Assembly: GCA_964521215.1 (NCBI GenBank)
Contig: CAZFRD010000002.1
Span: forward strand, 10,798 to 74,797
Source: an uncultured Pseudomonadales bacterium
Lineage (GTDB): Bacteria; Patescibacteriota; Microgenomatia; UBA1400; PJMF01
Length of the DNA: 64,000 nucleotides
Direction: 5' to 3'
Positions 27,058 through 54,079 of this stretch are shown here, one piece after another. A program made the translations under genes and the position numbers. Positions within the stretch are counted from its first letter, which is position 1. Every line of letters begins with the position of its first letter. Below the pieces are notes generated by a model, which was not told the DNA's origin, made no database searches, and was given only the letters and a program-made list of their open reading frames with translations.

Positions 27058-28290
27058 ATGCTCAAAAGTAAAAAGTGGGTCATCACTTCCCGACTTGTTT
27101 TTATTCTTTTACTTGCTTTGGTAATCTTTTTCAACCCAAAAACAGCTATGGCTTCGAGCTGCAGCAGTTACGCTCTAACCCACTCAAAATCAAGCAACTT
27201 TCCTTATGATGTTAGTTGCGCATCGATACCAACGAATGCAACTGTTACTGTTAATGCGGGTGGACCAAATAAATTTATCCCCAATGAAACCTACACCCTT
27301 TGGAGAGCAAAAAAGGCACAATCGTCTCAAGGTCAAAGTGTTCAGGTAGCATCTTCTCAAGCAACAAATGAAAATTCCATCACTTTTACACTATCTGATC
27401 CCGTTGCGTTTGAACCAGGGACATGGTTTTTGTCCATTTTTGGCCCTTCACTTGGCGATATTGGTGTAGGTTGCGGACTTTCTGGTTTTAGTCCAACTTA
27501 CAAAGTTGGTTTAAGAAGTTGGTCAGCAGAAATTTTTGCCTCCCAAACACGTGGTGGCAAAATGTGTTACGGTTTTCCCACCGGATGTCTAGAAGCCGGT
27601 ACACCAATCACACTGACTGTTGAAAACGTAAAACTCTGTGGCAAACCCTATGCAAATAAAAGAATTGACTTTTCTTCAGAAGGAAACAATGTGTCGAGAA
27701 ACACCGATACAAACGGTAATTTAACTGGTCAACCAATCGTGTTCACTTTTCAAAATGCCGGAAATTATGGATTTGTGGTTGGCCCATTTGAGTATAAATT
27801 CGACACTATACTTAGATCAAAATTTACTATTCGATCGTCTGGTCAGTGTGATACTTGTCTAACCACCAAACCTAAACCAATTGACCCCAACCAGCCTTAT
27901 CAATACAAAATTTGTGACCAGATTAATGGAGATTTGATGAGTCCAGAAGGAGGCAGTGCAAAAGATGCTTGTTTGCAGTGTGTTGGAGGTAATGAGTTGG
28001 GTCGGGAAGGCATTTGGACTGCTATTGGCTGTATCCCTCGTGATCCAGAGAAAATCGTCAAAAGCTTATTGCGACTGGGTTTGGGTATGGGAGGTGGTTT
28101 CGCCCTCATCATCATTTTGGCCTCGGGTTTTGTCCTAAGTGTTTCCCAGGGTGAACCTAATCGCATTAACGAAGCCAAGCAGTGGCTCACTTCTGCTCTA
28201 GTTGGTATGTTGTTTATTATTTTCTCGGTGACCCTACTTCACTTTATTGGCTATACTATTTTTAGAATACCTGGCTTTGGAGGACCTTAA
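27058..28290 (+). CDS. Pilin-like protein 1: about 330-aa Cys-containing secreted ectodomain fused to a C-terminal VirB2/TrbC-like two-helix pilin module
   Basis: The signal peptide is followed by the C-terminal module GFALIIILASGFVLSVSQGEPNRINEAKQWLTSALVGMLFIIF (helix, charged loop, helix), which is shared with the nine downstream paralogs. Confidence 0.55.
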   Translation: MLKSKKWVITSRLVFILLLALVIFFNPKTAMASSCSSYALTHSKSSNFPYDVSCASIPTNATVTVNAGGPNKFIPNETYTLWRAKKAQSSQGQSVQVASSQATNENSITFTLSDPVAFEPGTWFLSIFGPSLGDIGVGCGLSGFSPTYKVGLRSWSAEIFASQTRGGKMCYGFPTGCLEAGTPITLTVENVKLCGKPYANKRIDFSSEGNNVSRNTDTNGNLTGQPIVFTFQNAGNYGFVVGPFEYKFDTILRSKFTIRSSGQCDTCLTTKPKPIDPNQPYQYKICDQINGDLMSPEGGSAKDACLQCVGGNELGREGIWTAIGCIPRDPEKIVKSLLRLGLGMGGGFALIIILASGFVLSVSQGEPNRINEAKQWLTSALVGMLFIIFSVTLLHFIGYTIFRIPGFGGP

Positions 28291-28976
28291 TGATAATTGT
28301 TGGTAGAATTATTACTGCATTACTCGCCTGTTTCTTCTTATTTGTTGTCATTTCTCCCCAAGCTGCTTTCGCATCCTGTGGCAACATAAAAAACGACCCC
28401 CCAAACTGGGGTACAATTAAGTTTTGTGATTTCAATAACAATAATCAGGGAGAGGATCCAGTTGAGTTTTCTTTTGTAAGTTGTACAACTGGACAAGCCA
28501 ATGATGGACCGCTAGGAACCCGTTGTTGCGCTGACACTCCAGAATGTGGAGTCATCCCTAGCGTCACACCTACTCCTAGACCCCCAACACCCACAGGCGC
28601 TCCCACCCCCACCGGGCACGTGATCGATCCCATCAATCCGCCAACCGATGAATTTTTTGACCTGGTTGACCCGCTACAACATGGCGGGGGAAAAACGATT
28701 CTTGACGACGTAGCCTCACCTTTTGCCACTCAACTTAAAACACCAGGTGGCATCATTAGCCGGTTACTCTTCTTTGCTTTTCCCCTAGCTGGCTTGATCT
28801 TATTTGTCATGCTAGTCTGGGCCGGCTTTGAAATACTGATTGGCGCTCCAACCAAGAAATCAATCGATGCCGGCAAGCAAAGAGCCACCGCTGCCTTAGT
28901 GGGATTTTTTCTCTTATTTGCCAGTTACTGGATTTTCCAGATTATAGAAGTAGTATTCGGTGTTAAAATTTTATAA
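28290..28976 (+). CDS. VirB2/TrbC-like pilin paralog 2 (Cys-rich ectodomain, Pro/Thr linker)
   Basis: A signal peptide, a 6-Cys segment and a PTPRPPTPTGAPTPTG linker precede the module LVWAGFEILIGAPTKKSIDAGKQRATAALVGFFLLF. Confidence 0.55.
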   Translation: MIIVGRIITALLACFFLFVVISPQAAFASCGNIKNDPPNWGTIKFCDFNNNNQGEDPVEFSFVSCTTGQANDGPLGTRCCADTPECGVIPSVTPTPRPPTPTGAPTPTGHVIDPINPPTDEFFDLVDPLQHGGGKTILDDVASPFATQLKTPGGIISRLLFFAFPLAGLILFVMLVWAGFEILIGAPTKKSIDAGKQRATAALVGFFLLFASYWIFQIIEVVFGVKIL

Positions 28977-28982
28977 ACAAGT

Positions 28983-29546
28983 GTGCAAAAAATAATTAAG
29001 ATTATCATCAACTCCAGCTTACTCACCCTACTCTGTATTATTACAAGTTTATATTTTGTCAGTTCTGCTCAAGCTGCTTGTTCTGTCATTAGAGACACTG
29101 GAGCCGTATACTACTGTGACTACAACCATAATTTCCAGCCAGATCTAGGAGAAGGCTCTCATGTAGTTTGTACCAACAGCCCACCCAAATGTTGTAGTAC
29201 GCAAACAGAGTGCAACTTGCTCCCCAGTGGTTGTGCTCCCGGCTCTGGTTTCATTTCTCTGGGGGATTGTCTCAAACTATCTGATGATACAAAGATTAGT
29301 GACACCTACACCACTCCTGCTTTTCTGGTCAATCTGATTGTCCGCAACTTATTTGTAGTAGCCGGTGTAGTATTATTTTTCATGATTCTACTGGCTGGCT
29401 TAAAATTTATCACTGGTGGCAAAAAGGGCCTAGATGAAGCCAAGCAAATCATGACGGCTGCTTTAGTTGGCTTTTTACTGATGTTCTCGGCTTACTGGAT
29501 TGTCCAAATTGTTAAAATAGTGACCAAAACCGATCTGATTATATGA
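28983..29546 (+). CDS. VirB2/TrbC-like pilin paralog 3 (Cys-rich ectodomain)
   Basis: Signal peptide and 8 Cys, then the module LLAGLKFITGGKKGLDEAKQIMTAALVGFLLMF. Confidence 0.55.
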   Translation: MQKIIKIIINSSLLTLLCIITSLYFVSSAQAACSVIRDTGAVYYCDYNHNFQPDLGEGSHVVCTNSPPKCCSTQTECNLLPSGCAPGSGFISLGDCLKLSDDTKISDTYTTPAFLVNLIVRNLFVVAGVVLFFMILLAGLKFITGGKKGLDEAKQIMTAALVGFLLMFSAYWIVQIVKIVTKTDLII

Positions 29547-29968
29547 CCAAATTTTTTATTTCTATTGTTTTCGTCCTCGCACTGGCAATTATTTTCACTA
29601 GTAACGTCGGCGCGGTTGATAATCTTGATGCAACCATCGGTAAAATTGGTACCCCGCCTGGAGTAACAGAACAAATTGCAAATTCCGGTGTTGATCCAGA
29701 TGAAGTTGCCATTTTGTTTTTCCTCAGTTCCCTGATCAAGTTTGCCAATGTCATTGCTGGCATTTGGGTCGCTTTTAATGTAGTATTTGCCGCTTTTGAT
29801 TATTTGGGCGGACAAGGATCAGCCGAGGCTCACAAAAAAGTTCGCGAGAGAATCACCATGAGCGTGGTTGGACTATTATTACTAGTAGTGGCCTACGTGG
29901 CGACAGCCATGATCAGCTTACTTTTATTTGGCGATGCTAGTTATGTGCTCCAACCCAAGTTGGAATAA
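29543..29968 (+). CDS. VirB2/TrbC-like pilin paralog 4 (short, Cys-free)
   Basis: 141 aa. Signal peptide, then FAAFDYLGGQGSAEAHKKVRERITMSVVGLLLLVVAY. Confidence 0.55.
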   Translation: MTKFFISIVFVLALAIIFTSNVGAVDNLDATIGKIGTPPGVTEQIANSGVDPDEVAILFFLSSLIKFANVIAGIWVAFNVVFAAFDYLGGQGSAEAHKKVRERITMSVVGLLLLVVAYVATAMISLLLFGDASYVLQPKLE

Positions 29969-29977
29969 GACCAAACT

Positions 29978-30556
29978 ATGAAATTTACACATAAAATAGC
30001 TCTAGCCTTACTATTTACTTCTATGATTCATATCATAACTTTGGCTCAGATTTTTTTTGTACCAACAGCGCAAGCCTGGGATGGATCAAAATGCAGTTAT
30101 GTAGACCAATGTGTGGAGAATTACCGGTGTAAATGCCTCGGCGCTTGTACTGGAACTATAATCTGGACAAAAGGAGATCCGTGTGGCTCTGCTGTCATCG
30201 GAGGCATCAGACCACCTAACGGCGTAAGTGATTACAACCTCATTGCTATGCTTGGTGGGAGTGGTGACAACATTGGCATCTTTGCCTTTATTTCCGTCGG
30301 TTTGCGCTTATTCACAATTCTTTGTGGGCTGTTTATGTTTTTCAACTTTTTGTGGGCGGGCTATTCACTAATCACCAGAGCGGGAGACAGTAAAGCCTAT
30401 GCCGATATTCGAGAACGCTTACAATACGCCATGATTGGTTTAGTAGTGGTAGTGGCTGCCTATATGCTGGCTGCCATGATTGGACTCATCTTCTTTGGTG
30501 ACGCCACCTTTATTTTAAATCCAGACATCACTCAATACGGAGCAATTGCTCCTTAG
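29978..30556 (+). CDS. VirB2/TrbC-like pilin paralog 5 (Cys-rich ectodomain)
   Basis: Signal peptide and a CxC-rich segment, then LWAGYSLITRAGDSKAYADIRERLQYAMIGLVVVVAAY. Confidence 0.55.
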   Translation: MKFTHKIALALLFTSMIHIITLAQIFFVPTAQAWDGSKCSYVDQCVENYRCKCLGACTGTIIWTKGDPCGSAVIGGIRPPNGVSDYNLIAMLGGSGDNIGIFAFISVGLRLFTILCGLFMFFNFLWAGYSLITRAGDSKAYADIRERLQYAMIGLVVVVAAYMLAAMIGLIFFGDATFILNPDITQYGAIAP

Positions 30557-31037
30557 GTTAATCAAGAAAATTATGTATAATAGTCAAAAGAAAATGAAAA
30601 AAAGATTTGCTTTAAGTTTTGTTGTCGGTTTTCTAGTCTTGTCTTTTTTTATCCCCTCAAGCGTTTTGGCCCAATTTGGCGAAGGCATTGTGCCACCATT
30701 TGCTGAAGATAATAAATACATAAAAAGCATTACCAATGATCCGCTCAATGCCGAAGACGCTTTCACCACTTTTGAATTAATTGTGTCCAACGTGCTTGCC
30801 TTACTCACTGTCTTGGGCTCGCTGGTCTTTATCACCTATTTTATGCTCGGCGCAATCACCTGGATTACTTCGGGCGGTGATACCGCCAAGGTGGGTAAAG
30901 CCAGAGACCAAATGCTTCAAGGAGTGCTTGGTCTGATTGTTTTAACATTAATGTATGCCTTAATTGGCCTAGTGGGGAGTATTGTTGGCATTGATATTCT
31001 CAACCCGGCCAAAGTATTAGAAACTTTAGTACCATGA
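30546..31037 (+). CDS. VirB2/TrbC-like pilin paralog 6
   Basis: 163 aa. Signal peptide, then MLGAITWITSGGDTAKVGKARDQMLQGVLGLIVL. Confidence 0.55.
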   Translation: MLLRLIKKIMYNSQKKMKKRFALSFVVGFLVLSFFIPSSVLAQFGEGIVPPFAEDNKYIKSITNDPLNAEDAFTTFELIVSNVLALLTVLGSLVFITYFMLGAITWITSGGDTAKVGKARDQMLQGVLGLIVLTLMYALIGLVGSIVGIDILNPAKVLETLVP

Positions 31038-31393
31038 AAATCATTGAGTCCGCTCAAGCCGCTATTACTAACCCAGCCGTCGGCAATCTAGGTAACGATG
31101 CGGAAAAAGCTGCTGATGGTTCCTTGTTTCTTTCTCAACTTGTGCGCTATTGGAATAACATTATTAGTGTTGGCGCCCTGCTCTTATTACTTTACTTTAT
31201 TTGGGGCGCCCTAGTCTGGATCACCGCCAGTGGCGACAAAACCAAATTGGAAACGGCTCGCAACCGAATGTTGCAAGCCGCCATCGGCATGCTGATCCTC
31301 GTATCGTCATTTGTTATTATTGGCTTTGCGGGCAATTTGCTCTTTGGCGATGAATTTCAACTGCTTAATTTTAAGTTTTATACACCAGAATAA
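31034..31393 (+). CDS. VirB2/TrbC-like pilin paralog 7 (minimal, 119 aa)
   Basis: Core module IWGALVWITASGDKTKLETARNRMLQAAIGMLILV. Confidence 0.55.
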   Translation: MKIIESAQAAITNPAVGNLGNDAEKAADGSLFLSQLVRYWNNIISVGALLLLLYFIWGALVWITASGDKTKLETARNRMLQAAIGMLILVSSFVIIGFAGNLLFGDEFQLLNFKFYTPE

Positions 31394-31400
31394 CTTAATC

Positions 31401-31889
31401 ATGAAAATTTTTAAATTAAATCTAAGTAAGATGCTACAAATTATACTTTTTGTGTTTCTAATGCTTGTTATCAGCAATCAAGTAAGTTTTGCAGCCACAC
31501 CTCAACCCACAAACAGTAGCATCCAATTTAATATTGCGAAAGAAGCATATGATCAACAACTACCCACGGCCAATAGCTTTAATCCCAGCTCCAATGCTTT
31601 TAAGCAATTATTTGCGAATCTAATTGGCTCGATTTTATCTGTTGTGATTACTATCGGTGTCCTGATGTTGTTGCTCTACCTAGTCTGGGGCGCTTTTTCC
31701 TGGATCACGTCCGGAGGTGATAAAGGTAAAGTCGAGGAAGCCCGCAACCGCATGACCACCGCCGTGATTGGCATTATTGTACTCAGTTCCAGTATTGCCA
31801 TCTTTATGCTCGTGCAACAAATACTAGGTATCTGCGTGCTAGACTTTTGGGGCACAGCCTGCAGGACTCCAGCTGTTCCGGGTCCTTAA
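31401..31889 (+). CDS. VirB2/TrbC-like pilin paralog 8
   Basis: The start was moved to the internal ATG at 31401 (MKIFKLNL..., signal peptide) because the track ORF at 31311 overlaps the previous gene. Module VWGAFSWITSGGDKGKVEEARNRMTTAVIGIIVL. Confidence 0.55.
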   Translation: MKIFKLNLSKMLQIILFVFLMLVISNQVSFAATPQPTNSSIQFNIAKEAYDQQLPTANSFNPSSNAFKQLFANLIGSILSVVITIGVLMLLLYLVWGAFSWITSGGDKGKVEEARNRMTTAVIGIIVLSSSIAIFMLVQQILGICVLDFWGTACRTPAVPGP

Positions 31890-31899
31890 AAAGTCATTA

Positions 31900-31912
31900 T
31901 CTGGTATAATAC
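31900..31912 (+). promoter_or_regulatory. Extended -10 promoter element (TGGTATAAT) upstream of pilin paralog 9
   Basis: ctgGTATAATacc lies about 70 nt upstream of the ATG at 31982. An AAGGGA SD-like element lies 8 nt before the start codon. Confidence 0.4.
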
Positions 31913-31981
31913 CACTAGCATCTTTACAAATAAGTAAATATCGCGTTATAGTAGTAAAAGTACTTAACCAAAGGGATATAT

Positions 31982-32389
31982 ATGAAAAACACCTTGACCA
32001 AGATTGTTGCCGGCGCTGGCTCAGCGGGCACCGCTTTATTTTTGATGGCTTCCAATGCTATGGCTGCCGTATCAATTGGCACCGTTAACACTCCAGAAGG
32101 TGGCTATGCTTCAAACCTTGGTGGCGTTATTAATAGCTTGCTCACCATCGTTATGGCATTAGCTGCTCTAGCTGTGTTTATTTATCTCATCTGGGGTGCT
32201 TTTGAATGGATTACTTCCGGAGGTGATAAAGGTAAAACCGAATCAGCTCGCAATAAGATTACGGCAGCTGTAATTGGCTTAATTGTGCTCGCCGCTTCCT
32301 ATGCCATCTTAATGTTGCTCCTGCAGATTTTAGGATTCACTAGTTTAGAGGGTGCTTTTACTCAAATCAAACCTCTTAACTCCAAATAA
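31982..32389 (+). CDS. VirB2/TrbC-like pilin paralog 9
   Basis: 135 aa. Signal peptide, then IWGAFEWITSGGDKGKTESARNKITAAVIGLIVL. Confidence 0.55.
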   Translation: MKNTLTKIVAGAGSAGTALFLMASNAMAAVSIGTVNTPEGGYASNLGGVINSLLTIVMALAALAVFIYLIWGAFEWITSGGDKGKTESARNKITAAVIGLIVLAASYAILMLLLQILGFTSLEGAFTQIKPLNSK

Positions 32390-32412
32390 ATACTATCAAG
32401 ATAGTAATTTTA

Positions 32413-32439
32413 ACAGCCCGGCGGATGCCGGGCTGTTTT
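32413..32439 (+). terminator. Rho-independent terminator after pilin paralog 9
   Basis: A 9-bp GC-rich stem (CAGCCCGGC), GGAT loop and complementary arm (GCCGGGCTG), followed by TTTTG. Confidence 0.7.
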
Positions 32440-32441
32440 GT

Positions 32442-32489
32442 AGTAGTACCAATGTCTGCTTCGACAAGCTCAGCCTGACATTGGTACTA
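32442..32489. repeat. Long hairpin (14-bp perfect stem, 20-nt loop)
   Basis: GTAGTACCAATGTC ... GACATTGGTACTAC, located immediately after the terminator. Confidence 0.6.
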
Positions 32490-32495
32490 CACTAG

Positions 32496-32645
32496 TGTCA
32501 CCCCGAGCCTGTCGAGGGGTGTCATACTGAGCCCGTCGAAGCATGTCACACTGAGCCCGTCGAAGTGTGAGCCCGTCGAAGCATGTCACTCTGAGCCTGA
32601 CGAAGAGTGTCACTCTGAGGGGTGTCACTCTGAGCCTGTCGAAGA
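32496..32645. repeat. Imperfect tandem direct repeats, about 24-nt unit (TGTCACNCTGAGCCYGTCGAAGNN), about 6 copies
   Basis: Visible as gtcaccccgagcctgtcgagggg / tgtcatactgagcccgtcgaagca / tgtcacactgagcccgtcgaagtg / (tgagcccgtcgaagca) / tgtcactctgagcctgacgaagag / (tgtcactctgagggg) / tgtcactctgagcctgtcgaagag. The array sits between pilin paralogs 9 and 10 and runs into the start of paralog 10. Confidence 0.7.
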
Positions 32646-33107
32646 GTGACCCCACCATGTAGTATACTTACCAGTATCATGAATTCGCTCAGGCATCGTT
32701 TCGTCATCCCGCCGTTACTCATCACGTTTTTGATTTTCAGCTTAATTCTTCCCCCTCAGGCCCAAGCCCAAACCGTCGAATGGTCTGGCGTTTGCATGGC
32801 TGGCTCGTCTGGCGGGGTCCCCACTATTCAGGGTCTTGAGTGCTTAATCGCCAATGTCTTTACCGTTATTATTACCCTTATCGGTCTGGGTGGGTTTGTG
32901 ATGTTTATCATCGGTGCATTCTTATGGATGACCGCCGGTTCTAACCCCAAAAACATCGATTCAGCCAAAAAAACTTTCACCTACGCCGTGCTCGGTATGG
33001 TCTTAGCTCTCAGCGCCTTTATTATCATTAACTTGATTGCCGATTTTACCGGCGTGAGTGTAATTAAGACTTTTAGAATTCCAACTTCTTCAACAGACTG
33101 GAATTAA
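32646..33107 (+). CDS. VirB2/TrbC-like pilin paralog 10 (GTG start)
   Basis: Signal peptide ...PPQAQAQ and 2 Cys, then IGAFLWMTAGSNPKNIDSAKKTFTYAVLGMVLAL. Confidence 0.5.
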   Translation: MTPPCSILTSIMNSLRHRFVIPPLLITFLIFSLILPPQAQAQTVEWSGVCMAGSSGGVPTIQGLECLIANVFTVIITLIGLGGFVMFIIGAFLWMTAGSNPKNIDSAKKTFTYAVLGMVLALSAFIIINLIADFTGVSVIKTFRIPTSSTDWN

Positions 33108-33142
33108 TCAGGAAAACCCCAACCAAGCTGAGTAAAAGGCTA

Positions 33143-33155: not shown

Positions 33156-36100
33156 ATGTCTCGCCTACGCTCGATTAGCTTGGTTATGTTGGTGCTGTTA
33201 AATTTTTTCATTTTTTTTCTTAACCCTCAGTCCGCTAAAGCAGCTGAAAATAAATGTGGCGTCAATGTCGGACCATACTACAATCAAGTTTCTCAAGTTA
33301 AGTCGCTGACAAAAAATGGTGGCTGGATCGTAGTACTTGGATCACTAGGTCAGTGTGCAGATTATAGTTCTGTTTTTGGGCAGGGCTTAAACGTGGTACT
33401 TCGTGCCTATAACGAAGGTAAGCTGTTTGATGAACCTCAGGCAGATGCTTGGGTTGCTACCCTCCATCAACTCGATACCAAGGGACAAAAAGTGTATTTT
33501 ATGCCTTGGAATGAACCAAATCATGACAATGAAGGTGGTAACAGCACTGCCGGTGCAACGGTAAAAAGATATACCGATTACTTAACAGCACAACTTCGAG
33601 CAGCAGGTCTGCTTGGGACTAAAGTAGAAATACTTTCACCCATGGTTGATAAATTAAATCCCTCATTTGGTGGTCAATTTTTTACTAACCCCGGAGGTAT
33701 CTCAGGTTTTTATAATGGATTTATTGGCAGTTCAATCAATGAATACGACCATGCAAATGGAGATACTTCATACAGCAGTGCTTGCACTGCCGCACCACCA
33801 GCAAATAACTGTATGTATGATACCTTGGGCATTCCTCCACCATTCTATGCACTAGAAGCAGGTGTTGCTGGAACTGGGGAACCTCCTTTATACAGAGACA
33901 ATCAAATTGCTCTAATGTTAAACACCTCATGGTCACGCAAATGGCAAACCGATACTAATTTTGAAATGTTTGCAGTATTTTCCTACGATCCACATAGATC
34001 AGGTGATTGGGATATATACACTGCCCCTCAAACCAAAACTTTTTATTCTAATTCTTGCACTGTGGGCTCTGTGCAGAGCAGCACTTCGGTTGATGAAAAT
34101 AAGTTTACAAATTGGTATAACCCAAAGCAGAGTCAGTTAGTTGCTTGCGCCAGTGGTTGCGGTTTTGCTCCCAGTTCTCACCCGGAGCTCTGTAATGCAG
34201 CAGGAAAAAATGAGAACAATTTCGAGGGCTATGATACATCTCTTTACGACGACTACGACACTGTGCAAGATCAATTTTATATTCACCCCATCAAAGGACT
34301 CAATCGAGCTCAAGATGGAAGTCAGGGTGCGTTTGACGCCAATCTCAAAACTATCCGTGACGATTTGATCACTCAGGGATATGAGTCACGTTGCGCCACT
34401 CCGGGTTTCAACATAGAACTAACCCAAGATGGTAAAGACTGGATGGCAGATTACGTGGAACAAAACCCTCCGGGCGCTGTCTTTGGTGGACATGAAAATT
34501 ACATAATTCGTACCAGAGTGGCCGGCGATCCACCGGGAATCGGTGATTACGTTCGTTCCTGGTTGGCAGTGGATTATCGTGAGGTACAAACACCAGTTTT
34601 TCGGGATGTTTCGGACAAGCGCTTTTTGATGACTTCGCTGGAAGAATTTTTTGGCTTCAAAGACACAGTCGTCCAAGAACAATCACCAGCCGAACTCAAC
34701 TCCGCCGCAATCAACTCTCTGCTGACTAACCAACAGCGTTGCGAAGCCTCGGTCAGAATTTTGCTCAGACAAGAAGAAATGTGTAATAAGTTGGCCGACC
34801 CCAATGCTTGTGCTCTCTACTCTCGGCCCGTTCCGCAAACCAATTTCACCATCAAAACCATGTTGGAAGCTTATAAAGCTTTGGTAGCTGCGCCTCCCTC
34901 CACCATCAAACCCAATCCTTTGCCCCCCTACACCGATCCTGCCACCATTAAAGCCATTTGCTCTGAACTAGTTGGGTCAGATTGGAACGAAACAGCTAGA
35001 GAAGGCTTGCTTTACACCCCGCTCACTATTGATCGTGCCTACCGACTAGCTTTCTTAGTGACCACCATCGAGGTGTTCCATGCGACTTATAAAAGTATGT
35101 TTAATCTTTACATCCATCCCAATGAGGGACCAGCAGAAGATGGTCCAAGTAAACCAGACGATGCCGTGTTAGTAAATGCTTTTAAAGTTCCTGATATTCT
35201 CACTACCACGCAGTTGGAAAGTGCTGGCTCGGGTGGAAGTGGCAACACAGCCTGGACGGATTCGAGTAAGCTGACGCGTAACTCGCTGCTAACCAAGAAA
35301 AACCAGGATGTGCTGACAAAGACTGTTAATGCAAAAGTTGCCGAACTAAAAAAAGCAGCCGAACATTATGATACGAACAAGCAAGAGTCTGGAGCAGACG
35401 AAATTTACTGTTTGGAGGGTGTTTCTAATCGAGGCATTGGCCCCCCCGAATGCAAGGATGAATTAGGCAAAGCTGTAATTGACATTATCAATGCTCAAGC
35501 AAGCAATCGCGTTACCACCAAGTATGATAATCAAATCGATGCTGAGTGTCCTGAACTAATCAAGGAGCCAGCCAGTAGTATTCTGGATTTCGGTTCATTC
35601 GGGACGGTTGAGACAATCAAAAACCCACCAGCCGAACTACTTTATACTCAAGAATTTGGTGCCAAACTTTTGCATAATATCTTCGAGGTTCCCGAAAAAA
35701 ATCAGGATCCTGCGGGATTACTTGACAGCTCTCATCAAATAGAGCCCAAGGGCGACAGTCACCCTTCTTTTGCCGAAACCTGGAAACCGGGAGATCCGCG
35801 TGCAGAGACTAATGATATAGCCCCAGGTGAACCAAATAGCGAGTGGGGACTCAAATCGCTGTTCCATGTCACAGATAGAACATATCCCAAATTTCCCTAC
35901 AACGCCTGTTGTGACGTGAGCGAAGTGAAACACTTTTTGGTCTATCCCATGGGCTATGACATGCAAAAAGTTCAGGAGGTTTTGGCTGGTACATTTTTTA
36001 CTACCGAACAAATCGCCAGTTTAACCACAGCAGCAGAAGAGTTTGACCGGATTCAACTAAGTGGGGATCAAATAGATTTCACTGGGGGAACTAGAGAGCA

Positions 36101-47900: not shown

Positions 47901-49046
47901 GCTTCTTCTGCCGCCACCTCCGTTGCCACCCAAGCTCCTTTTCTTGGCAGTCTGGCTGGCATCCCAGTCTTAGCCTTAATCCCCGCCCTATCAATGCTGT
48001 CGCTGGCTGGGATCACGCTTTACACTTTGTTTGTAATTTTTTCCGCTTTCCTCGCCCCTCTACCCGTGGGCAACCTCGGTGGTGTCAACACCACTAAATC
48101 TGAATATGCGGTGCTGACAAAACTGGCATCACCGGGGTCACTATCAAACAACACGACCGCCAACGTCAACTACAAAATTATCTTGCAACCTAGAAGGAAT
48201 TATTCGCTCAAAGTAACCGCTGTGACCGATAGCGCCAACACTGGCTTCAACTTTCAATCTAATCGCTCAGGCAAAATTAATCCCCAAGTTTCACCACCCG
48301 CCAGCTTGCTCAATCCTCGTATTTCTTTGGCAGACTTTTCTCCCGATTTTTTTGGTCAGACCCAACTAAAAGAATATAGTGTCACCTTCTCTGGGGGCAA
48401 GGACGTGCTGGTTAGTAACGTGATAAAAATTACCTACGATGTCCAGGATGCTCAAGGCAATTCCATTGCCACTAACCAAACGATTGACGCCATCGCCAAT
48501 GTGTCCATTGGCGACCATGGCGTATTTTGCTGGCCCACAACGGGAGAAATAATCCAGTTGCCAGGGGGCAGTTTTTCACACAATAACTCTGACGCATTTG
48601 ATATTTCAGCTCCAAAAACCAACAAGGTCTACACCCCATTTGCTGGCTGGGCTCAAAAGGGCGATATGGGTAATAGTGATTATGGCAAATACGTAGTAGT
48701 TGACTCATATGTGCAAGGAAGGTGGATCAGAATTATTTACGCTCACTTAAGTAGCGCTGCGGTGGGTACTCCCACAGCCCACACGTGGCTTAATATAGCC
48801 TACAACCATGACGACAACCAAGCGAACAACATTGGTCAACAAGTTGGCGCTGGTCAACTAATTGGCGCAGTCGGCTCCACTGGCAACTCTACAGGACCAC
48901 ACCTTCATTATGAGCTCATATATATTAACGGCAGAAGACATACTTTCGGAAGTGGATTCAGCCTTATTAACTTAGTGCCTCCAAGACCTGCGGGGGGCAA
49001 ATACAGAGTAGGAGATTATGTTAAAACCTGTTATCCATTTAATTAA
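44916..49046 (+). CDS. Giant bitopic protein with C-terminal peptidase M23 (LytM) domain; PrgK/VirB1-like peptidoglycan hydrolase candidate
   Basis: 1376 aa. The first ~870 aa are helical and soluble. Two Gly-rich hydrophobic segments follow (IALLGGIVVGGGVAIGLLL...GALAGGTVGAALGPLGVILGAGIGGYLGY), then an Ala/Ser/Thr-rich linker. The C-terminus carries the M23 motifs (GDHGVF..., AVGSTGNSTGPHLHYELI). A TATAAT lies 7 nt before the ATG. Confidence 0.75.
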   Translation: MADDSSEKTISQPKRLVSGFALNNLAHRQWLAVFLAGLQEALFKENKLVENLKIPVWFGSKPSWVILTTTDAKRDLDDPARDEKSLFPTDIVYLIVDLAIRLDVPRKEIEYYLSNATRDGDLFIESTVLDTQTITELKTLVDEIGKKLELVTKQEDKQKEEEAPPTLEKGPAEAVKPVAPPQKGVTTAGVKPTPTEGGDQAETQVELPGAVAASTVISAQAAARTKRYEFAWIYNHFLFDLTGKYGIEPSDELRAQLQGIVSEHLGTISPDEMASFFANPTARLRAIQAIYQKLNLQDDFKQKLSNQYDTYLLTATDSQKQQFLQSNNFANGGLKIIENLQNFQLENNQSGVIKQAETTLAGLTGTAIDGPTALNFERAIEALALTMGSKTVATDLGLSYPENKADLETFIKKLSAKQIAQIFFPNPNKPDEVDDKILLAIEQNLSSIQNLLTATLLATSLEKLATAPNELKKLVGIAVFTDDDLKGDQTAIESAIVSVRTLTGAMPVTGKDDDVTPAITTSHTQQLMEQYQKRVQKIWASLEEESQLRAYYALFGLTEDPANHQVLLDKVQHLRIPGSNKLPWNPNLINLINWEDFLRKDYKENQRVAALRAKAAEGFTKNLSQLQLEQLQISHLLNELENGVVYAEGVAHKINQNEDIVDLEFRSVLNTLDLVTTRLDLLKSRKLAEDDEKFNVALNERVDNLSGRCTTVLSTLAGYNRLAGLLQNYQNLTLVETYQLSLEYEIPEILLYQVGDITQPGFNQQAELSDRVTADNLLDDPSSMSLGQLNAAARKSNELHPSRLDQINLANQNNQALNDLKNIVGGVGEIAAQSKGNWVAAAGLGIKKYLTDKEFRQSINRTAKRYAKKIALLGGIVVGGGVAIGLLLRHLLGMAGQWGGMLGGALAGGTVGAALGPLGVILGAGIGGYLGYNVGAKAAALNASSGAELLSPSSSAAQPIFQEEVLSSSPATFQSATSGTGMEATTPAAATASPVASSAATSVATQAPFLGSLAGIPVLALIPALSMLSLAGITLYTLFVIFSAFLAPLPVGNLGGVNTTKSEYAVLTKLASPGSLSNNTTANVNYKIILQPRRNYSLKVTAVTDSANTGFNFQSNRSGKINPQVSPPASLLNPRISLADFSPDFFGQTQLKEYSVTFSGGKDVLVSNVIKITYDVQDAQGNSIATNQTIDAIANVSIGDHGVFCWPTTGEIIQLPGGSFSHNNSDAFDISAPKTNKVYTPFAGWAQKGDMGNSDYGKYVVVDSYVQGRWIRIIYAHLSSAAVGTPTAHTWLNIAYNHDDNQANNIGQQVGAGQLIGAVGSTGNSTGPHLHYELIYINGRRHTFGSGFSLINLVPPRPAGGKYRVGDYVKTCYPFN

Positions 49047-49998
49047 CCAGCGCTCAAAAAAATCTTGGGTATTCTCTATCCTGCTTTTACTCGTGATGAT
49101 GGGCGTGGTGTTTACCCTCCTCACACCCAGCCAACAACCAACATCTGACCAAAATAAAAATTACGATGACACCTACTCAAGCTTTTCCAATGTCGGCTAC
49201 GTTGGGGGCACTTTGGTCATACCCGAAAATCTACCAGTGTACCAACAAGCAACTTGGGAAGATCCATTGCTACTCAAAAACCAATTTGTTGCCCAGTTCA
49301 ACCTGGCGGGTGATCCCGAAGATCCCACGCTTTGGCAAAACGAAAATTTGACGATCACGCAAATAGATGAGCCAACTCGCTATGTTTTGGAATATCTGCC
49401 AGACGAAGAGGAAGCAAGCAACCCAGCTCAAGTTCAACCCGCTAGTTACCCCGATCCCACCCAAATTGCCAACAGTTGGATTAATCAACATTTCACCACT
49501 TATTCACTCACGGCCGTAAGTTCGGAAGTTGAGTATCTAACCGGCGAGTATGAACTGGTAAAAACATCTAAATCGCTCACCACTTTGGTCAAAATTCCCT
49601 ACGCCCAAACTGCGGGCAACTACCCAGTCCAAACCGAATTAACCGATAGTTACCCGCTAATTCTTTGGGTCGACACACAGAAAAACTTGGTTAAAAAAGT
49701 AGTTTTTTACCCCACCTTGGTAACTTTCAAATCAGGAGAGGAACTGCCCACTATTAGTGTGGATGAGGCGGTAAAAAACATTAACTCGGAAAAGGAAGCG
49801 CGCATCATCAAATCTGATTTTACGCCCATTGAACCATATTCACTCGAACAAATTAAAAGTGGCAACCTAACCAGTGGCAAAATCGTTTACCGAGTGGCTT
49901 CCAACCAGTTGTTAAAACCCTTTTACTTCTTTAAAGGCAATTTAACCGACAGCAACAACATCGGATTTGAAGCTGAGATTGTGGTTCCCGCTATCTAA
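49018..49998 (+). CDS. Bitopic membrane protein (N-terminal signal anchor plus about 280-aa extracytoplasmic domain); VirB8/TcpC-like candidate by position
   Basis: RSKKSWVFSILLLLVMMGVVFTLLT anchor followed by a soluble domain. It sits between the hydrolase and the PrgI-like gene, as ConB/TcpC-type genes do in monoderm T4SS loci. This is a positional inference only. Confidence 0.35.
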   Translation: MLKPVIHLINQRSKKSWVFSILLLLVMMGVVFTLLTPSQQPTSDQNKNYDDTYSSFSNVGYVGGTLVIPENLPVYQQATWEDPLLLKNQFVAQFNLAGDPEDPTLWQNENLTITQIDEPTRYVLEYLPDEEEASNPAQVQPASYPDPTQIANSWINQHFTTYSLTAVSSEVEYLTGEYELVKTSKSLTTLVKIPYAQTAGNYPVQTELTDSYPLILWVDTQKNLVKKVVFYPTLVTFKSGEELPTISVDEAVKNINSEKEARIIKSDFTPIEPYSLEQIKSGNLTSGKIVYRVASNQLLKPFYFFKGNLTDSNNIGFEAEIVVPAI

Positions 49999-50052: not shown

Positions 50053-51255
50053 ATGAAAGAACATCCGATTCCCCAAGATATTACTAACTACCGATTTCAC
50101 ATCGTGGGCAGTATGACCCTAAAGCAGTTTTTGGAAATTGGGGCGGGCATTGTGTTCGCCGCCATCTTGTACAAAACTGGTCTCCCCGTTTTCATTAAGT
50201 GGCCCGCCATCGTCATTTCGGCTCTCACGGGTGCGGCCGCCGCTTTCTTACCCATCGAGGAGCGGCCGCTAGACCACTGGATCACCACCTACATCCGAGT
50301 TTTGTACAAACCCACCCAATTTTTCTGGAAACGGGAACCAAAGATACCCGCGCTCTTTACCTTCACCGCCAACACCGCCAACAACAACGCCGAATCGGAA
50401 TTTGACCTCTCTCCAATTAAACGTGAAAGAATCAAAGAATATATGGCTTCGCTTCACCAACCAAGCTCTAAGGACAACCAATATGACACCGCCCAACAAG
50501 TAAAAATTGGCGAAATCATCGCCTCTTTTGCCGAAGTTGAACCCACTCACAAACCTACCATCAAAATCAATGTAGAAAAACCCGACCTCCAACCAAGGGT
50601 GAGGGCGCTAAGAAAGCCAGAAGATCACCCTGCGCCCAAACCCACTAGCGTTGCCCCAGAAGTGATTGTGCCGTTTTTATATCCCGAACCAGAAGCTCAG
50701 CCCGCCCCAATAACTCAAGAGATTTTACCCCAATCCGAATCTCGAGTTGGGGTGGCTACTCAACTTAAACCAGATCAGGTGGCCTACTCTATTCGCGTTC
50801 AAGACACACCCCTGGTTCAATTTGCGGAAGAAAAGGAAGAAGAGGAAATGCGAGAGAAATCACCCATCAAACTCCTCACTAACGAAGAACTCCAACAACA
50901 ACTCCAACCCACCCCCTCAACTAAAAAAGACGTTGTGGCCGCTAGTAGCTCCGCTACTTTCAACACCAACCTACCATTTCCCAATGTCCCCAGCGAACCG
51001 AACAAACTGGTTGGTATGGTGCTAACCCAAAATGGAGAATTAATTCCCGGCGCAGTTGTGGAGGTGCATAATGCTCATGGATCAATTGAACGAGCGGTCA
51101 AGTCCAATGCTTTGGGTCAATTTTTTATTACTACCCCACTAACCGCTGGTAAATACGTAATAAAAGTCGAGGCAGATGGCTATCAATTCCCCACCGCCGA
51201 ACTAGTGGTCAACAACTCGGTTTTGCAACCTCTCGAGTTGAGAGCCACCACCTAA
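50053..51255 (+). CDS. PrgI/TcpE-family (VirB3-like) membrane protein with long C-terminal extension ending in a carboxypeptidase-regulatory-like beta-sandwich domain
   Basis: The N-terminus IPQDITNYRFHIVGSMTLKQFLEIGAGIVFAAILY...FLPIEERPLDHWI matches the PrgI-family pattern, with two TM helices. A Pro/Glu-rich linker follows. The C-terminal segment GMVLTQNGELIPGAVVEVHN...LGQFFITTPLTAGKYVIKVEADGYQ resembles a CarboxypepD_reg domain. Confidence 0.55.
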   Translation: MKEHPIPQDITNYRFHIVGSMTLKQFLEIGAGIVFAAILYKTGLPVFIKWPAIVISALTGAAAAFLPIEERPLDHWITTYIRVLYKPTQFFWKREPKIPALFTFTANTANNNAESEFDLSPIKRERIKEYMASLHQPSSKDNQYDTAQQVKIGEIIASFAEVEPTHKPTIKINVEKPDLQPRVRALRKPEDHPAPKPTSVAPEVIVPFLYPEPEAQPAPITQEILPQSESRVGVATQLKPDQVAYSIRVQDTPLVQFAEEKEEEEMREKSPIKLLTNEELQQQLQPTPSTKKDVVAASSSATFNTNLPFPNVPSEPNKLVGMVLTQNGELIPGAVVEVHNAHGSIERAVKSNALGQFFITTPLTAGKYVIKVEADGYQFPTAELVVNNSVLQPLELRATT

Positions 51256-51306: not shown

Positions 51307-52179
51307 ATGCCCACCACCCAATCTACGACTACCACCCAACAATTTTTGGATATTTTCGACATTACCAACGATGTGTTAATTCTAAAAAATGGCACCTCAG
51401 CCATCATTCTCACAGTCGATGCCATGAACTTTGGTTTGCTGGCGGAAGAAGAACAAGACGCCATTATGTATGCCTATGCAGGGTTGCTCAATTCCCTCAA
51501 CTATCCCATTCAAATCGTGGTGCAGTCAAAAACCAAAGATGTCACTGGTTACCTCCGAAAGCTTTCGGAACAAGAAGAGAAAACCCAAGATGAAACCATG
51601 CGCAAACGCATTGCTCAATACCGCCTGTTTGTGACCAACCTCATTCATGAGCGCAACGTTTTAGACAAAAGATTTTACGTAGTCATTCCCGCCACCTCAA
51701 TAGAGATGGGTTTTTTGGGCGCCCAAACTTTTATTCCCGGCAAAGATGATTTTAATATTAGCGACGTCGAGCGCAGCGTGATTATCGAAAAAGCCACCAA
51801 CCTGCTCGAGCCCAAGCGCGACCACCTAATTAGTCAATTTGCGAGAATTGGGCTTTTTTCTCGACAACTCAACACCCAAGAAATTATTCAGTTGTTCTAC
51901 GTGAACTACAACCCCGAATCGACCGAGGGTCAAGAAATAGCCGAAAGCTCATCCTATACTAGCGGTCTCGTCCACGCAGACATGGGCACTGCTTACGGTG
52001 GTTCCGAGCCCATTCAAACTGAAACTACCGCGCCCCCAGTCCCAGACAGCTTACCAAACACAACTACTCAAGTTCCTTCACCTCAGCTAAACATACTCAA
52101 CCAACCAGTGGTTAAAACAGCCGGCGTCACCGCAGAACAAACCGTCTGGCCCCAACCAACTAACGAAAGTTATCAATAA
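51307..52179 (+). CDS. VirB4 N-terminal-domain-like protein (possible 5' fragment of a split virB4)
   Basis: ILKNGTSAIILTVDAMNFGLLAEEEQDAIMYAYAGLLNSLNYPIQIVVQSK resembles the extreme N-terminal region of monoderm VirB4/TrsE/ConE ATPases. The ORF stops 1 nt before the virB4 ATG in a different frame. Confidence 0.45.
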   Translation: MPTTQSTTTTQQFLDIFDITNDVLILKNGTSAIILTVDAMNFGLLAEEEQDAIMYAYAGLLNSLNYPIQIVVQSKTKDVTGYLRKLSEQEEKTQDETMRKRIAQYRLFVTNLIHERNVLDKRFYVVIPATSIEMGFLGAQTFIPGKDDFNISDVERSVIIEKATNLLEPKRDHLISQFARIGLFSRQLNTQEIIQLFYVNYNPESTEGQEIAESSSYTSGLVHADMGTAYGGSEPIQTETTAPPVPDSLPNTTTQVPSPQLNILNQPVVKTAGVTAEQTVWPQPTNESYQ

Positions 52180-52180
52180 T

Positions 52181-54079
52181 ATGCCCAAGCTTTCATCCCT
52201 CCTACCATTTGGCAAGAAAAAAACTCCCTCCGAGCAACCGCTGACCAAAGAACAACAGGAGTTAGAAAAAATCAAAAATTTTAGCCGAGGCTTAGTCACT
52301 ATCCAAGACATTATTGCCCCAGAAGCAATAGAAATCGATTTTACTTTTCAAAAAATCAACTCAACCTATACCCGCACGCTGTTTGTCGCTGGCTATCCCC
52401 GAAGCGTCCCCGCTAATTGGCTATCACCCCTGATTAACTACCCCCATCGCATCAGTACATCAATGTTTATCTACCCCGTAGATTCTTCAGAAATTCTCGA
52501 TAACTTAAAACGAAAAATTACAGAAATGGAAGCGGAAATTCAATCAGACTTAAGAGCGGGAAAAATCAGCAACATTAATACCGAGGTGAAGCTGGAAGAC
52601 GCCCGCTACCTAAGAGAGGATTTGGCCAAAGGCTCAGAACGCTTTTTCCAATTTGGTTTATATGTCACCATTACCGCAATTTCCAAAGAGGAATTAGACA
52701 GAGTCACCAAGGCAATCCAGTCATCGCTTGGGTCACTACTTATTGTGTCCAAAAAAGCCACCCTCCAGATGGATGAAGGCTTTAAAACCACCCTCCCCAT
52801 GGGCGTAGACAAACTATTGGTGACGAGAAACATGGACACCACTTCTCTGGCCACCACCTTTCCCTTCACCTCCAGCGAGTTGACTCAAGAAAACGGCATT
52901 ATGTATGGTATCAACGAACACAATGATTCATTAGTCATTTTTGACCGATTTTCAATGGAAAATGCCAATATGTTAATTTTCGCTAAATCTGGTGCTGGTA
53001 AATCATTTACCGTCAAACTTGAGGTGTTACGCCAACTGATGTTTGGCACCGAGGCTATTATTCTTGATCCCGAACATGAATATGAGGAAATGTGTCGGGC
53101 AGTCAATGGCGAATACATCAACTTCACCTTCGGTTCTCAGGCTAAAATTAATCCGTTTGACCTATCCTCTCTCTATGAAGAGGGTGAAAACGAGTTGGGC
53201 CAAAAAATTATTTCGCTCCACGGCCTGCTCAAAGTGATGTTGGGCGCCATGACCCCCCAACAAGATGCGTTGTTGGACAGAGCCTTGGTAGCCGCTTATA
53301 AAGCCAAAGGCATTACTCCAGATCCTTCAACCCAGACCAATGAACCACCACTAATGGAGGACTTATATAAAGCCCTCATTGGTATGGAAAACAAAGAGGC
53401 AGACGATATTAGCGCTCGCCTGGAGAAATTTATCACTGGTTCATTTAGAGGCATTTTTGACCAAGGCTCAAACATTGATATCACTAACCCTCTCACAGTT
53501 TTTTCGGTCAAGGAAATGGAGGAAGGACTTCGTCCGATAGCGATGTATATTATCCTCGACTTTATTTGGACGAGAGTGAAAAAAAATCTCAAAAAAAGGA
53601 TCCTAATAATTGATGAGGCCTGGTACTTCATGAAGCACCCGGACTCCGCTTCTTTTATTCATTCAATGGTCAAAAGAGCTCGTAAGTACTTCTTGGGCAT
53701 TACCACTATTACTCAAGACGTTGAGGATTTTTTACACAACGACTTTGGCAAAGCCATTGTGTCTAATGCTTCAATTCAATTTTTGATGAAACAATCAACC
53801 GCCTCTATTCCCGTTTTGGCGGAAACATTCTACTTATCCCAAGGCGAGCGCCAGCTCTTAGTGACCGCCGATATTGGAGAGGGCATCTTCTTTGCTGGCC
53901 AAAACCACGTAGCTCTGAGGGTGGTGGCTAGCCCAGAGGAACACTCCCTAATTACCACCAACCCGGAGGAGCTATTACAAAAACGAGAGCAGCAAGTCGC
54001 CAGCGTGGTCAACAACGCTGTGTTTACGGGCTCTACCATTGCTGATTACGCTCCTCCCCCTCAAAATACTCAGGGATGA
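52181..54079 (+). CDS. virB4: VirB4/TrsE/PrgJ-family T4SS ATPase
   Basis: The N-terminal region IAPEAIEIDFTFQKINSTYTRTLFVAGYPRSVPANWLSPL is a monoderm VirB4 hallmark. Walker A FAKSGAGKSF, Walker B ILIIDEAWYFM, and C-terminal motifs. 632 aa. Confidence 0.8.
   Translation: MPKLSSLLPFGKKKTPSEQPLTKEQQELEKIKNFSRGLVTIQDIIAPEAIEIDFTFQKINSTYTRTLFVAGYPRSVPANWLSPLINYPHRISTSMFIYPVDSSEILDNLKRKITEMEAEIQSDLRAGKISNINTEVKLEDARYLREDLAKGSERFFQFGLYVTITAISKEELDRVTKAIQSSLGSLLIVSKKATLQMDEGFKTTLPMGVDKLLVTRNMDTTSLATTFPFTSSELTQENGIMYGINEHNDSLVIFDRFSMENANMLIFAKSGAGKSFTVKLEVLRQLMFGTEAIILDPEHEYEEMCRAVNGEYINFTFGSQAKINPFDLSSLYEEGENELGQKIISLHGLLKVMLGAMTPQQDALLDRALVAAYKAKGITPDPSTQTNEPPLMEDLYKALIGMENKEADDISARLEKFITGSFRGIFDQGSNIDITNPLTVFSVKEMEEGLRPIAMYIILDFIWTRVKKNLKKRILIIDEAWYFMKHPDSASFIHSMVKRARKYFLGITTITQDVEDFLHNDFGKAIVSNASIQFLMKQSTASIPVLAETFYLSQGERQLLVTADIGEGIFFAGQNHVALRVVASPEEHSLITTNPEELLQKREQQVASVVNNAVFTGSTIADYAPPPQNTQG

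Follow-up and report, generated by a model that had tools for sequence, protein, structure and literature searches.

Introduction

The T4SS (type IV secretion system) provides one of the few molecular handles on how the Candidate Phyla Radiation (CPR), or Patescibacteria, a large part of the bacterial diversity not yet in culture, make their living from other cells. In Southlakia epibionticum ML1, the cluster SEML1_0006-0019, which is closest to the conjugative T4SSs found in Gram-positive bacteria, encodes pilin subunits that are essential, and neither a coupling protein nor a relaxase could be recognised in it; it is essential for epibiotic growth as determined by transposon sequencing (Tn-seq), and protein export or another capacity was proposed for it (Wang et al. 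2023, PMC10633639). A phylum-wide survey (Quinonero-Coronel et al. 2025, PMC12102498) described the same repertoire, with no relaxase and with the type IV coupling protein (T4CP) encoded elsewhere, placed the T4SS close to dnaA/dnaN, for which a gene-dosage effect was proposed, and reported pilin arrays of 2-11 genes whose paralogues are ~25% identical, VirB6 being 'scarce' in Microgenomatia. The points of both studies are repeated in a 2025 review (PMC12857230). The T4SS type, the pilin arrays, the missing relaxase, the proximity to dnaA and a role in host interaction are already known from publications of 2023-2025 (PMC10633639, PMC12102498). Here, we describe a T4SS block at positions 27058-54079 of a 64,000-nucleotide (nt) stretch of contig CAZFRD010000002.1 from an ultra-small patescibacterium (the whole stretch is hereafter called the window).

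We consider it probable, at roughly 85%, that this block is a chromosomal, vertically inherited T4SS typical of Patescibacteria, of the Pacebacteria/Woesebacteria type as judged by the record titles of its relatives, and that it derives from monoderm MPF_FATA conjugation machinery which lost its DNA-processing module. This T4SS has gained VirB2-type pilins and has become core chromosomal equipment. The locus is a clean example of a described system and not a new kind.

Results

Conservation and genomic context

An initial annotation of the window had described a single co-oriented, monoderm-type T4SS block without relaxase or integrase, ending 80 nt before dnaA and thus situated at the chromosomal origin rather than on an obvious mobile element. 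The monoderm type is borne out by VirB4, which exceeds the cut-off of the CD1110 family (CTn2, MPF_FATA; Table 1) and also matches the Pfam families P-loop_TraG and AAA_10, while the profile of its own family retrieved a single PDB sequence, 4ag5, the VirB4 of the Firmicute Thermoanaerobacter (E = 4.6e-55). A look-up of the exact VirB4 sequence gave no record. A scan of one genome per species yielded 294 stretches with a close VirB4 relative, all from Patescibacteria-type metagenome-assembled genomes (MAGs); their titles include Pacebacteria, Woesebacteria, Paceibacterota and 'Patescibacteria group', for which the NCBI phylum is Minisyncoccota (=CPR/Patescibacteria). The best 80 of these 294 (L001-L080) were compared with the window. 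Searches with tblastn revealed that the order M23 protein, 326-residue protein, PrgI, TrsD, VirB4, dnaA, dnaN, yidC, jag, rnhA and DUF4012 is kept in essentially all loci with enough flanking sequence. Furthermore, virB4 is followed by a dnaA gene of the same orientation in 76 of 76 loci, and the distance between the two genes has a median of 115 nt and is below 400 nt in 68 of 69 loci; in the window, 81 nt separate the virB4 stop (54079) from the dnaA ATG (54161). The distance to dnaA and the position beside it given in the initial annotation are upheld.

Median identities to the proteins of the window were determined across the related loci and amounted to 60% for the TrsD-like protein (74 loci), 52% for DnaA, 47% for YidC, 46% for RnhA, 42% for PrgI, 37% for DnaN, 36% for Jag, 30% for the M23 protein and 26% for the 326-residue protein. 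For VirB4 the median was 82% (79 loci, i.e. the best 80 minus L001), a value that is somewhat inflated as the loci were picked by VirB4 similarity, although the comparison with DnaA within the same genomes is still valid. By this measure VirB4 ranks with the most constrained proteins of these organisms, above DnaA. The invariant gene order, together with the higher conservation of VirB4 relative to DnaA, argues that the T4SS constitutes vertically inherited core equipment rather than a mobile element.

The search for mobility functions combined Pfam scans of 54 of the larger open reading frames (ORFs) of the window (the main ORFs of the block and those of both flanks), an NCBIfam scan of ten T4SS-block and T4CP proteins, and a relaxed-threshold Pfam scan of the block ORFs that had no assignment; no relaxase, integrase or transposase family was detected in any of these, in line with the initial annotation, in which no relaxase, integrase or oriT-like feature had been seen. 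The 1070-residue protein was considered as a candidate relaxase and rejected, since strict and relaxed Pfam, NCBIfam and PDB phmmer searches, Pfam searches with its 17 relatives and a PDB search with a profile of these relatives were all negative. A repeat search over 24-58 kb gave only short, low-identity chance matches between the flanks, and no att-like direct repeats were present between the flanks of 27.0 and 54.1 kb. Additionally, no tRNA gene was found in the window, an Rfam scan of its entire length gave 0 matches, and the window, which is chromosomal DNA, has a GC content of ~43% with no sharp boundary. The claim of a single co-oriented block did not hold, as two minus-strand genes (37014-37874 and 39881-43093) interrupt it.

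Components encoded beside virB4

The 290-residue TrsD-like protein was missing from the component list of the initial annotation. Its gene adjoins virB4 in 75 of 80 loci; the protein matches the NCBIfam families VirB4_plasma (positions 104-239, E = 3.3e-9) and TrsD (E = 6.6e-4), and an orthologue from the Joint Genome Institute (JGI) carries the Pfam TraC-like domain. Since this protein matches the N-terminal part of VirB4, while the match between the CD1110 profile and the window's VirB4 begins only at position 177, the N-domain of VirB4 appears to be encoded separately, as in TrsD-containing systems. A comparison by hhalign of the TrsD-like protein with the N-terminus of the window's own VirB4 family gave no signal, so that the link is drawn from the NCBIfam matches. 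The adjoining PrgI/VirB3-like protein, whose gene was found in 71 of 80 loci, possesses two adjacent hydrophobic helices (residues 29-68) and a C-terminal CarboxypepD_reg beta-sandwich domain (PF13620, E = 6.5e-10). With PF12666 above its gathering score and VirB4 above its family cut-off, the PrgI/VirB3 and VirB4 assignments of the initial annotation both stand.

The 1376-residue M23 protein comprises ~865 cytoplasmic residues, several hydrophobic segments at residues 868-1057 and then the M23 domain, for which NCBIfam matches of the ShyA/ShyC/MepM/DipM type were obtained and in which the zinc motifs HxxxD (SHNNSD) and HxH (PHLHYE) are intact in the translation. On these features the protein is taken as the putative functional counterpart of VirB1/PrgK. 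Its gene is located upstream of the 326-residue gene in 46 loci, the similarity being mostly C-terminal. A PrgK-like bitopic M23 hydrolase had been annotated here: the M23 domain is real, while the protein, with its several hydrophobic segments, is not bitopic. The 326-residue protein is fast-evolving; tblastn revealed a positional orthologue, 20-38% identical, in 40 of the 80 loci. No match to VirB8, TcpC or PrgL was obtained for this protein with Pfam or NCBIfam, for 30 of its orthologues with Pfam, or with a profile of 31 sequences against the PDB, and its AlphaFold2 model was unusable (predicted local distance difference test, pLDDT, 43) because searches of large databases gave only four usable homologues. 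In monoderm T4SSs this position belongs to a VirB8-like protein; the position and the bitopic topology given in the initial annotation are retained, and an assignment to VirB8 is putative.

The pilin array

Ten VirB2-like pilin paralogues are encoded at 27058-33107. The Pfam family PF18895 (T4SS_pilin) matched nine of the ten ORFs at E <= 0.004, five of these above the gathering score, and the tenth, pilin-like 4, which is 34% identical to pilin 5 (E = 1e-21), at E = 0.013; all ten possess a signal-like hydrophobic N-terminus and two C-terminal hydrophobic helices. The VirB2-like pilins of the initial annotation are thereby confirmed. Classical TrbC/VirB2 (PF04956) is matched by one orthologous pilin in locus L085. 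Additional Cys-rich domains (7-12 Cys) are present in pilins 1, 2, 3 and 5, as exemplified by pilin-like 1, in which a signal-like N-terminus is followed by a 12-Cys extracellular domain and a C-terminal VirB2-like two-helix hairpin.

The left half of the block was compared with six further genomes that were found through homologues of the VirB6-like protein (including L082-L085). In all six, 7-10 pilin genes are followed by a gene for a giant secreted protein (934-1766 residues), a minus-strand gene (282-352 residues), the VirB6-like gene, a second minus-strand gene (878-1094 residues), zero to four variable genes and the M23 giant. The pilins are colinear one-to-one orthologues between genomes at 33-87% identity, as opposed to ~31% between paralogues over local alignments within the window. 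In L083, pilins 3 to 10 occur in the same order at 34-65% identity (VirB6 there being 47% identical); an orthologue of pilin-like 1 (65%) is found at the left end of L084; pilin-like 3 has orthologues in L083 (58%) and L084 (65%); and those of pilin 10 are 62-75% identical in L082, L083 and L084. This colinear orthology, together with the low identity between paralogues, indicates that the array is an old, fixed set of distinct subunits and not a recently amplified variable family.

Pilin 9 is a candidate major pilin, a role suggested by its surroundings in the sequence. The best promoter-like site of the block (31923-31952, 10/12 matches) lies just 5' of it and a strong hairpin with a T-run directly 3', and a 116-nt repeat is common to pilins 7, 8 and 9. 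Promoter and terminator scans gave sites that were not enriched relative to shuffled sequences. The spacer following pilin 9 folds with a minimum free energy of -108.7 kcal/mol (z = -4.76), its repeat unit being GTCAC-N-CTGAGCC(C/T)GTCGAAG-N-GTGAC, and belongs to no Rfam family. This hairpin spacer may set the expression ratio between a possibly separately promoted pilin 9 and the downstream genes. The same repeats yield a spurious minus-strand ORF (FDRLRVT / LRRAQ).

Further genes of the left half

The start of the 582-residue VirB6-like protein is most likely at 38012, because an identical 582-residue protein is on record, both on an NCBI contig of 83.9 kb and in a Logan assembly. Its homologues number at least 768, and a Pfam domain occurs in none of them. 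Searches of Pfam, NCBIfam and the PDB (by profile) were negative for the protein itself, as was Pfam for 41 of its homologues. The AlphaFold2 model built with 41 homologues has a mean pLDDT of 62.6, its membrane core reaching 70-90, and its predicted fold resembles TrwI/VirB6; in terms of predicted fold, we regard the protein as VirB6-like. The VirB6-like protein of the initial annotation is thus recovered by structure prediction and not by sequence profiles.

The 1274-residue protein encoded after the pilin array gave no Pfam, NCBIfam or PDB match and is conserved at residues ~340-1115; its signal-like N-terminus and 34 Cys agree with the secreted giant protein of the initial annotation. A WNEPN motif in its N-terminal part (33156-34200) is suggestive of clan-A glycoside hydrolases, and the L082 orthologue has a 'faint' precomputed Glyco_hydro_cc match; from this motif and the one faint match, a glycoside hydrolase activity would be only a lead.

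Among the cytoplasmic proteins, the 286-residue DHH-like protein has orthologues of 45-80% identity in L082-L084, and on reading its sequence the classical DHH catalytic motifs are not evident. The 1070-residue protein has only 17 relatives among 1.84 billion representatives (phmmer); in L084 its counterpart is only 29% identical over 169 residues, VirB6 and the DHH-like protein being 67% and 80% identical there. The 351-residue protein shares 32% identity with its counterpart in L084, a locus with swapped gene order, and is absent or undetectable in the other loci. The 1070-residue protein may be a substrate or an accessory factor, and the 1070-, 351- and 164-residue proteins are, speculatively, candidate substrates or effectors.

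The dnaA region

The two spacers on either side of dnaA are rich in DnaA boxes. Across 69 related loci they contain 9-11 boxes/kb, an approximately 20-fold enrichment, with 11 boxes/kb in the virB4-dnaA spacer against a background of 0.49/kb, and the dnaA-dnaN spacer carries at least two boxes in 59 of the 69. These spacers probably represent the left and right parts of a bipartite oriC. A bipartite oriC flanking dnaA occurs in Bacillus. Additionally, the plus-strand GC skew at third codon positions has a value of -0.24 across the T4SS block, irrespective of the strand of a gene, and becomes zero to positive beyond ~57 kb, which fits an origin at dnaA/dnaN. From the flip in skew, seen within 64 kb only, and the enrichment of DnaA boxes, the 27-kb block appears to be transcribed toward the origin and thus head-on to the leftward fork. 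Such a head-on orientation would be unusual for a strongly constrained gene set.

VirD4-like ATPase and flanking genes

A VirD4-like ATPase had been annotated in the pilB operon, about 25 kb away from the block. The gene does adjoin pilB, and its product has one N-terminal transmembrane segment and a Walker A motif (GKTGTGKS), while the similarity to coupling proteins is only weak: TrwB_AAD_bind scores 32 bits, above its gathering score, and covers the Walker A region only; TraD, CD1115 and CedD matches are all far below their cut-offs; and DotL and TrwB reach E = 4e-4 and E = 9e-3. Its position by PilB suggests that the ATPase has a functional tie to the type IV pilus, either in place of one to the T4SS or in addition to it. 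A 282-residue ORF without a family match overlaps its start (within 971-5890, minus strand).

Housekeeping genes of the left flank include pilB, lgt, pth, an ATP-dependent DNA ligase gene, recF and SpoIID, and the right flank carries dnaA, dnaN, yidC, jag/KhpB, rnhA, the DUF4012 protein and ribosomal protein L25. Between the DNA ligase gene and recF (19637-23013, minus strand), several genes of toxin-antitoxin type are found, coding for two PIN-domain proteins, one MazE-like antitoxin and one Fic/DOC protein that carries a helix-turn-helix domain. recF is located ~30 kb from dnaA-dnaN on the opposite strand, the T4SS block filling most of the interval. A 634-residue protein (9981-11885, minus strand) shows a Glu/Leu/Phe/Val dehydrogenase domain in its C-terminal half only (324-580), its N-terminal 320 residues having no family match. 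With regard to the related loci, L073 (CP011212.1), many loci under the title 'uncultured Pseudomonadales bacterium' and L003 ('Limisphaerales') bear titles of unrelated taxa (TM6, Pseudomonadales, Limisphaerales); they keep the virB4-dnaA-dnaN-yidC synteny, their VirB4 is 74-86% identical to that of the window, and such titles look like mislabelled bins or records.

Table 1. Coordinates and properties of the features of the window (positions in nt from its first letter; lengths in amino acid residues; E-values and scores as obtained in the family searches).
Feature	Coordinates	Strand	Length	Properties
VirD4-like (T4CP-like) P-loop ATPase	2716-5058	-		adjoins pilB (971-2668), immediately upstream, same strand
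Pilin-like 1	27058-28290	+	410	PF18895 E = 1.3e-3, below gathering score
Pilin-like 2	28290-28976	+	228	7 Cys; PF18895 E = 5.7e-5; L084 orthologue 74% identical
Pilin-like 3	28983-29546	+	187	9 Cys; PF18895 E = 3.8e-3
Pilin-like 4	29543-29968	+	141	PF18895 only E = 0.013; topology as other pilins
Pilin 5	29978-30556	+	192	7 Cys; PF18895 28.4 bits, above gathering score
Pilin-like 6	30546-31037	+		PF18895 E = 9e-5; true start probably a few codons downstream
Pilin 7	31034-31393	+	119	PF18895 27.5 bits, above gathering score; L084 orthologue 87% identical
Pilin 8	31401-31889	+		likely ATG start inside listed ORF 31311-31889; PF18895 31.4 bits
Pilin 9	31982-32389	+	135	PF18895 33.9 bits
Structured spacer	32390-32645			terminator-like hairpin, T-run, then ~6 tandem hairpins resembling repetitive extragenic palindromes
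Pilin 10	32646-33107	+		likely start ATG 32679; PF18895 34.7 bits
Giant secreted Cys-rich protein	33156-36980	+	1274	34 Cys; signal-like N-terminus
DHH-like cytoplasmic protein	37014-37874	-	286	weak DHH match, E = 2.8e-3, below gathering score
VirB6-like polytopic membrane protein	38012-39760	+	582	predicted fold TrwI/VirB6
Fast-evolving cytoplasmic protein	39881-43093	-	1070	no Pfam, NCBIfam or PDB match
Cytoplasmic protein	43173-44228	+	351	fast-evolving; no family match (Pfam, NCBIfam)
Cytoplasmic protein	44330-44824	+	164	fast-evolving; no family match; 34% identical in L084
Membrane-anchored M23 peptidoglycan endopeptidase	44916-49046	+	1376	Peptidase_M23 E = 5e-15
Bitopic protein in VirB8 position	49018-49998	+	326	one N-terminal transmembrane segment
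PrgI/VirB3-like protein	50053-51255	+		PF12666 PrgI 29.5 bits, gathering score 27
TrsD-like protein	51307-52179	+	290	ends 1 nt before virB4 start
VirB4 ATPase	52181-54079	+		NCBIfam conju_CD1110 E = 3e-116, 389.5 bits against a cut-off of 325
virB4-dnaA spacer	54080-54160			one-mismatch DnaA box 54126-54134
dnaA	54161-55627	+		Bac_DnaA E = 3e-64; most plausible ATG 54161 (MSLQSF...)
dnaA-dnaN spacer	55628-55849			perfect TTATCCACA at 55767, one-mismatch box at 55731; 67% AT

Discussion

Beyond the observed gene content, the family and fold assignments, the lack of mobility genes, the synteny and the conservation, we infer the order of assembly, the formation of a pilus, the substrate and the direction of transport as follows. 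The VirB4 ATPase, together with its split-off N-domain (the TrsD-like protein), would dock on the PrgI/VirB3-like and VirB6-like proteins at the single membrane, while the membrane-anchored M23 endopeptidase would open the cell wall locally. About ten distinct VirB2-like pilins would then be pulled from the membrane into an extracellular filament or conduit, perhaps decorated by the long Cys-rich pilins and the giant secreted protein, the latter being a possible adhesin or tip. This filament or conduit would touch the host cell beneath the epibiont, and macromolecules would cross to or from the host, the favoured substrates being proteins moving outward, with the locus-encoded 1070-, 351- and 164-residue proteins as candidates. 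The locus itself is fixed immediately to the left of the proposed bipartite oriC flanking dnaA. The host-interaction role put forward in the initial annotation, which the sequence itself does not show, agrees with the essentiality by Tn-seq of the homologous system of S. epibionticum (PMC10633639); the extreme conservation of VirB4 would fit a need for the system in epibiotic growth, if only indirectly.

A number of points weigh against this reading, beyond the selection of the loci by VirB4 similarity. The TrsD and T4CP similarities lie below curated cut-offs, the VirB8 assignment of the 326-residue protein is only putative, and VirB6 is called from a medium-confidence model whose Foldseek TM-scores are low (0.21-0.39). 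The T4CP-like gene, located 22 kb upstream of the block, is only putatively linked to the T4SS, and its homologue is not essential in Southlakia (PMC12102498). The essentiality data derive from Saccharimonadia, a different class (PMC10633639). Finally, the effector proposal is based only on location, the lack of export signals and fast evolution, the sequence being silent on direction and substrate.

If the same machine worked inward, it would take up DNA, nucleotides or other macromolecules from the host, much as the archaeal Ced/Ted systems or the ComB system of Helicobacter pylori do with DNA, and would offset missing biosynthesis. The lack of a detected relaxase indicates that the system is not a donor-type DNA exporter, and comEC is dispensable whereas the T4SS is essential in Southlakia, and Patescibacteria need another nucleotide route (PMC12102498). 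Weak similarity also connects VirB4 with CedB, a protein of DNA import (E = 1.6e-15; score 56.7 bits, cut-off 700), and the T4CP-like ATPase with CedD (E = 1.6e-7; score 30.4 bits, cut-off 600). However, both matches are far below their cut-offs and reflect generic P-loop similarity, conjugative VirB4 (CD1110) is by far the best family, and no CedA-like or ComB-specific component was identified, nor was any other Ced/ComB family matched; these results lower the case for membership of the Ced/Ted or ComB systems and not that for an import function. Overall, we regard an importer as unlikely. A more elaborate proposal, which we would call quite doubtful, is that the ten pilins and the giant Cys-rich protein might form a hetero-oligomeric conduit for the import of host DNA, nucleotides or proteins, and that, with the virB4 end of the locus situated inside a bipartite oriC and running head-on to replication, assembly of this feeding apparatus might be coupled to replication initiation.

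It is improbable that the T4SS is only a machine for adhesion or pilus assembly, in which VirB4 drives the formation of a multi-pilin fibre for host attachment and nothing else is secreted. The pilin array is unusually large and its members are individually conserved, several pilins have Cys-rich extracellular domains, the giant secreted protein follows the array and the locus includes no T4CP, all of which would suit an adhesive fibre. Conversely, PilB, the ATPase for the assembly of type IV pili, is encoded in the window as well, and such pili reportedly mediate adhesion to the host in Patescibacteria (PMC12102498); furthermore, the VirB6-like channel component is retained and highly conserved, and a constraint on VirB4 exceeding that on DnaA seems more than a redundant adhesin would call for. 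A conjugative element integrated beside dnaA by chance, or the decaying remains of such an element, can be given next to no credence, for while the VirB4, PrgI and TrsD families are typical of monoderm conjugative elements and the block has toxin-antitoxin and Fic genes at a distance of 4-7 kb on its left side, no relaxase, integrase, transposase, att-like repeat or tRNA gene was found in the searches described above, position and orientation relative to dnaA are identical in all 76 species-level relatives, and the genes are intact and subject to purifying selection of great strength, with pilin paralogues that are orthologous across genomes.

A vertically inherited, chromosomal T4SS for host interaction is therefore the reading that we retain, and to the published picture the present locus adds a fold-supported VirB6 candidate in a lineage where surveys by hidden Markov models found VirB6 scarce, evidence for a pilin array whose composition is ancient and fixed, not variable, and, as candidate substrates, a few fast-evolving cytoplasmic proteins encoded within the locus. 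To these may be added a VirB4 that is more constrained than DnaA and the apparent transcription of the block toward oriC.

Comparison with known systems

Of the systems compared, the R388/Agrobacterium MPF_T type shares with the window the predicted TrwI/VirB6-like fold of the 582-residue protein and the two-helix hairpin of VirB2/TrbC-type pilins. It differs in that no VirB5, VirB7, VirB9, VirB10 or VirB11 was found in the window, in the monoderm envelope, and in the presence of ten pilin paralogues as opposed to one.

The MPF_FATA systems (CTn2 CD1110, pCF10 Prg and pGO1 Trs) resemble the block in their CD1110-type VirB4, PrgI, TrsD, a membrane-anchored peptidoglycan hydrolase and the lack of outer-membrane core components. 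In contrast to these, the window has no detected relaxase, no oriT, no T4CP within the cluster and no detectable VirB8 of the PrgL/TcpC type, and it possesses VirB2-type pilins, which Gram-positive systems lack (PMC12857230). Additionally, its hydrolase is an M23 domain on a 1376-residue protein, whereas those of Gram-positive bacteria are of the SLT/CHAP or NlpC-P60 type, and the block is chromosomal and fixed at oriC, unlike the MPF_FATA elements.

The T4SS of Patescibacteria corresponds to the block in its MPF_FATA-affine VirB4 with an adjacent TrsD-like protein, PrgI/VirB3, VirB6, tandem divergent pilins and a cell-wall peptidase, as well as in the missing relaxase, a T4CP encoded elsewhere, the location beside dnaA/dnaN and the reading as a chromosomal, non-conjugative system. 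The window departs from it in that the VirB6-like protein is invisible to Pfam, NCBIfam and PDB profiles and is seen only by fold, and in carrying two conserved minus-strand genes and a giant secreted Cys-rich protein after the pilins. Furthermore, the pilins of the window have one-to-one orthologues in other genomes, a pattern that favours fixed structural roles over the host-range or antigenic variation suggested in the survey (PMC12102498).

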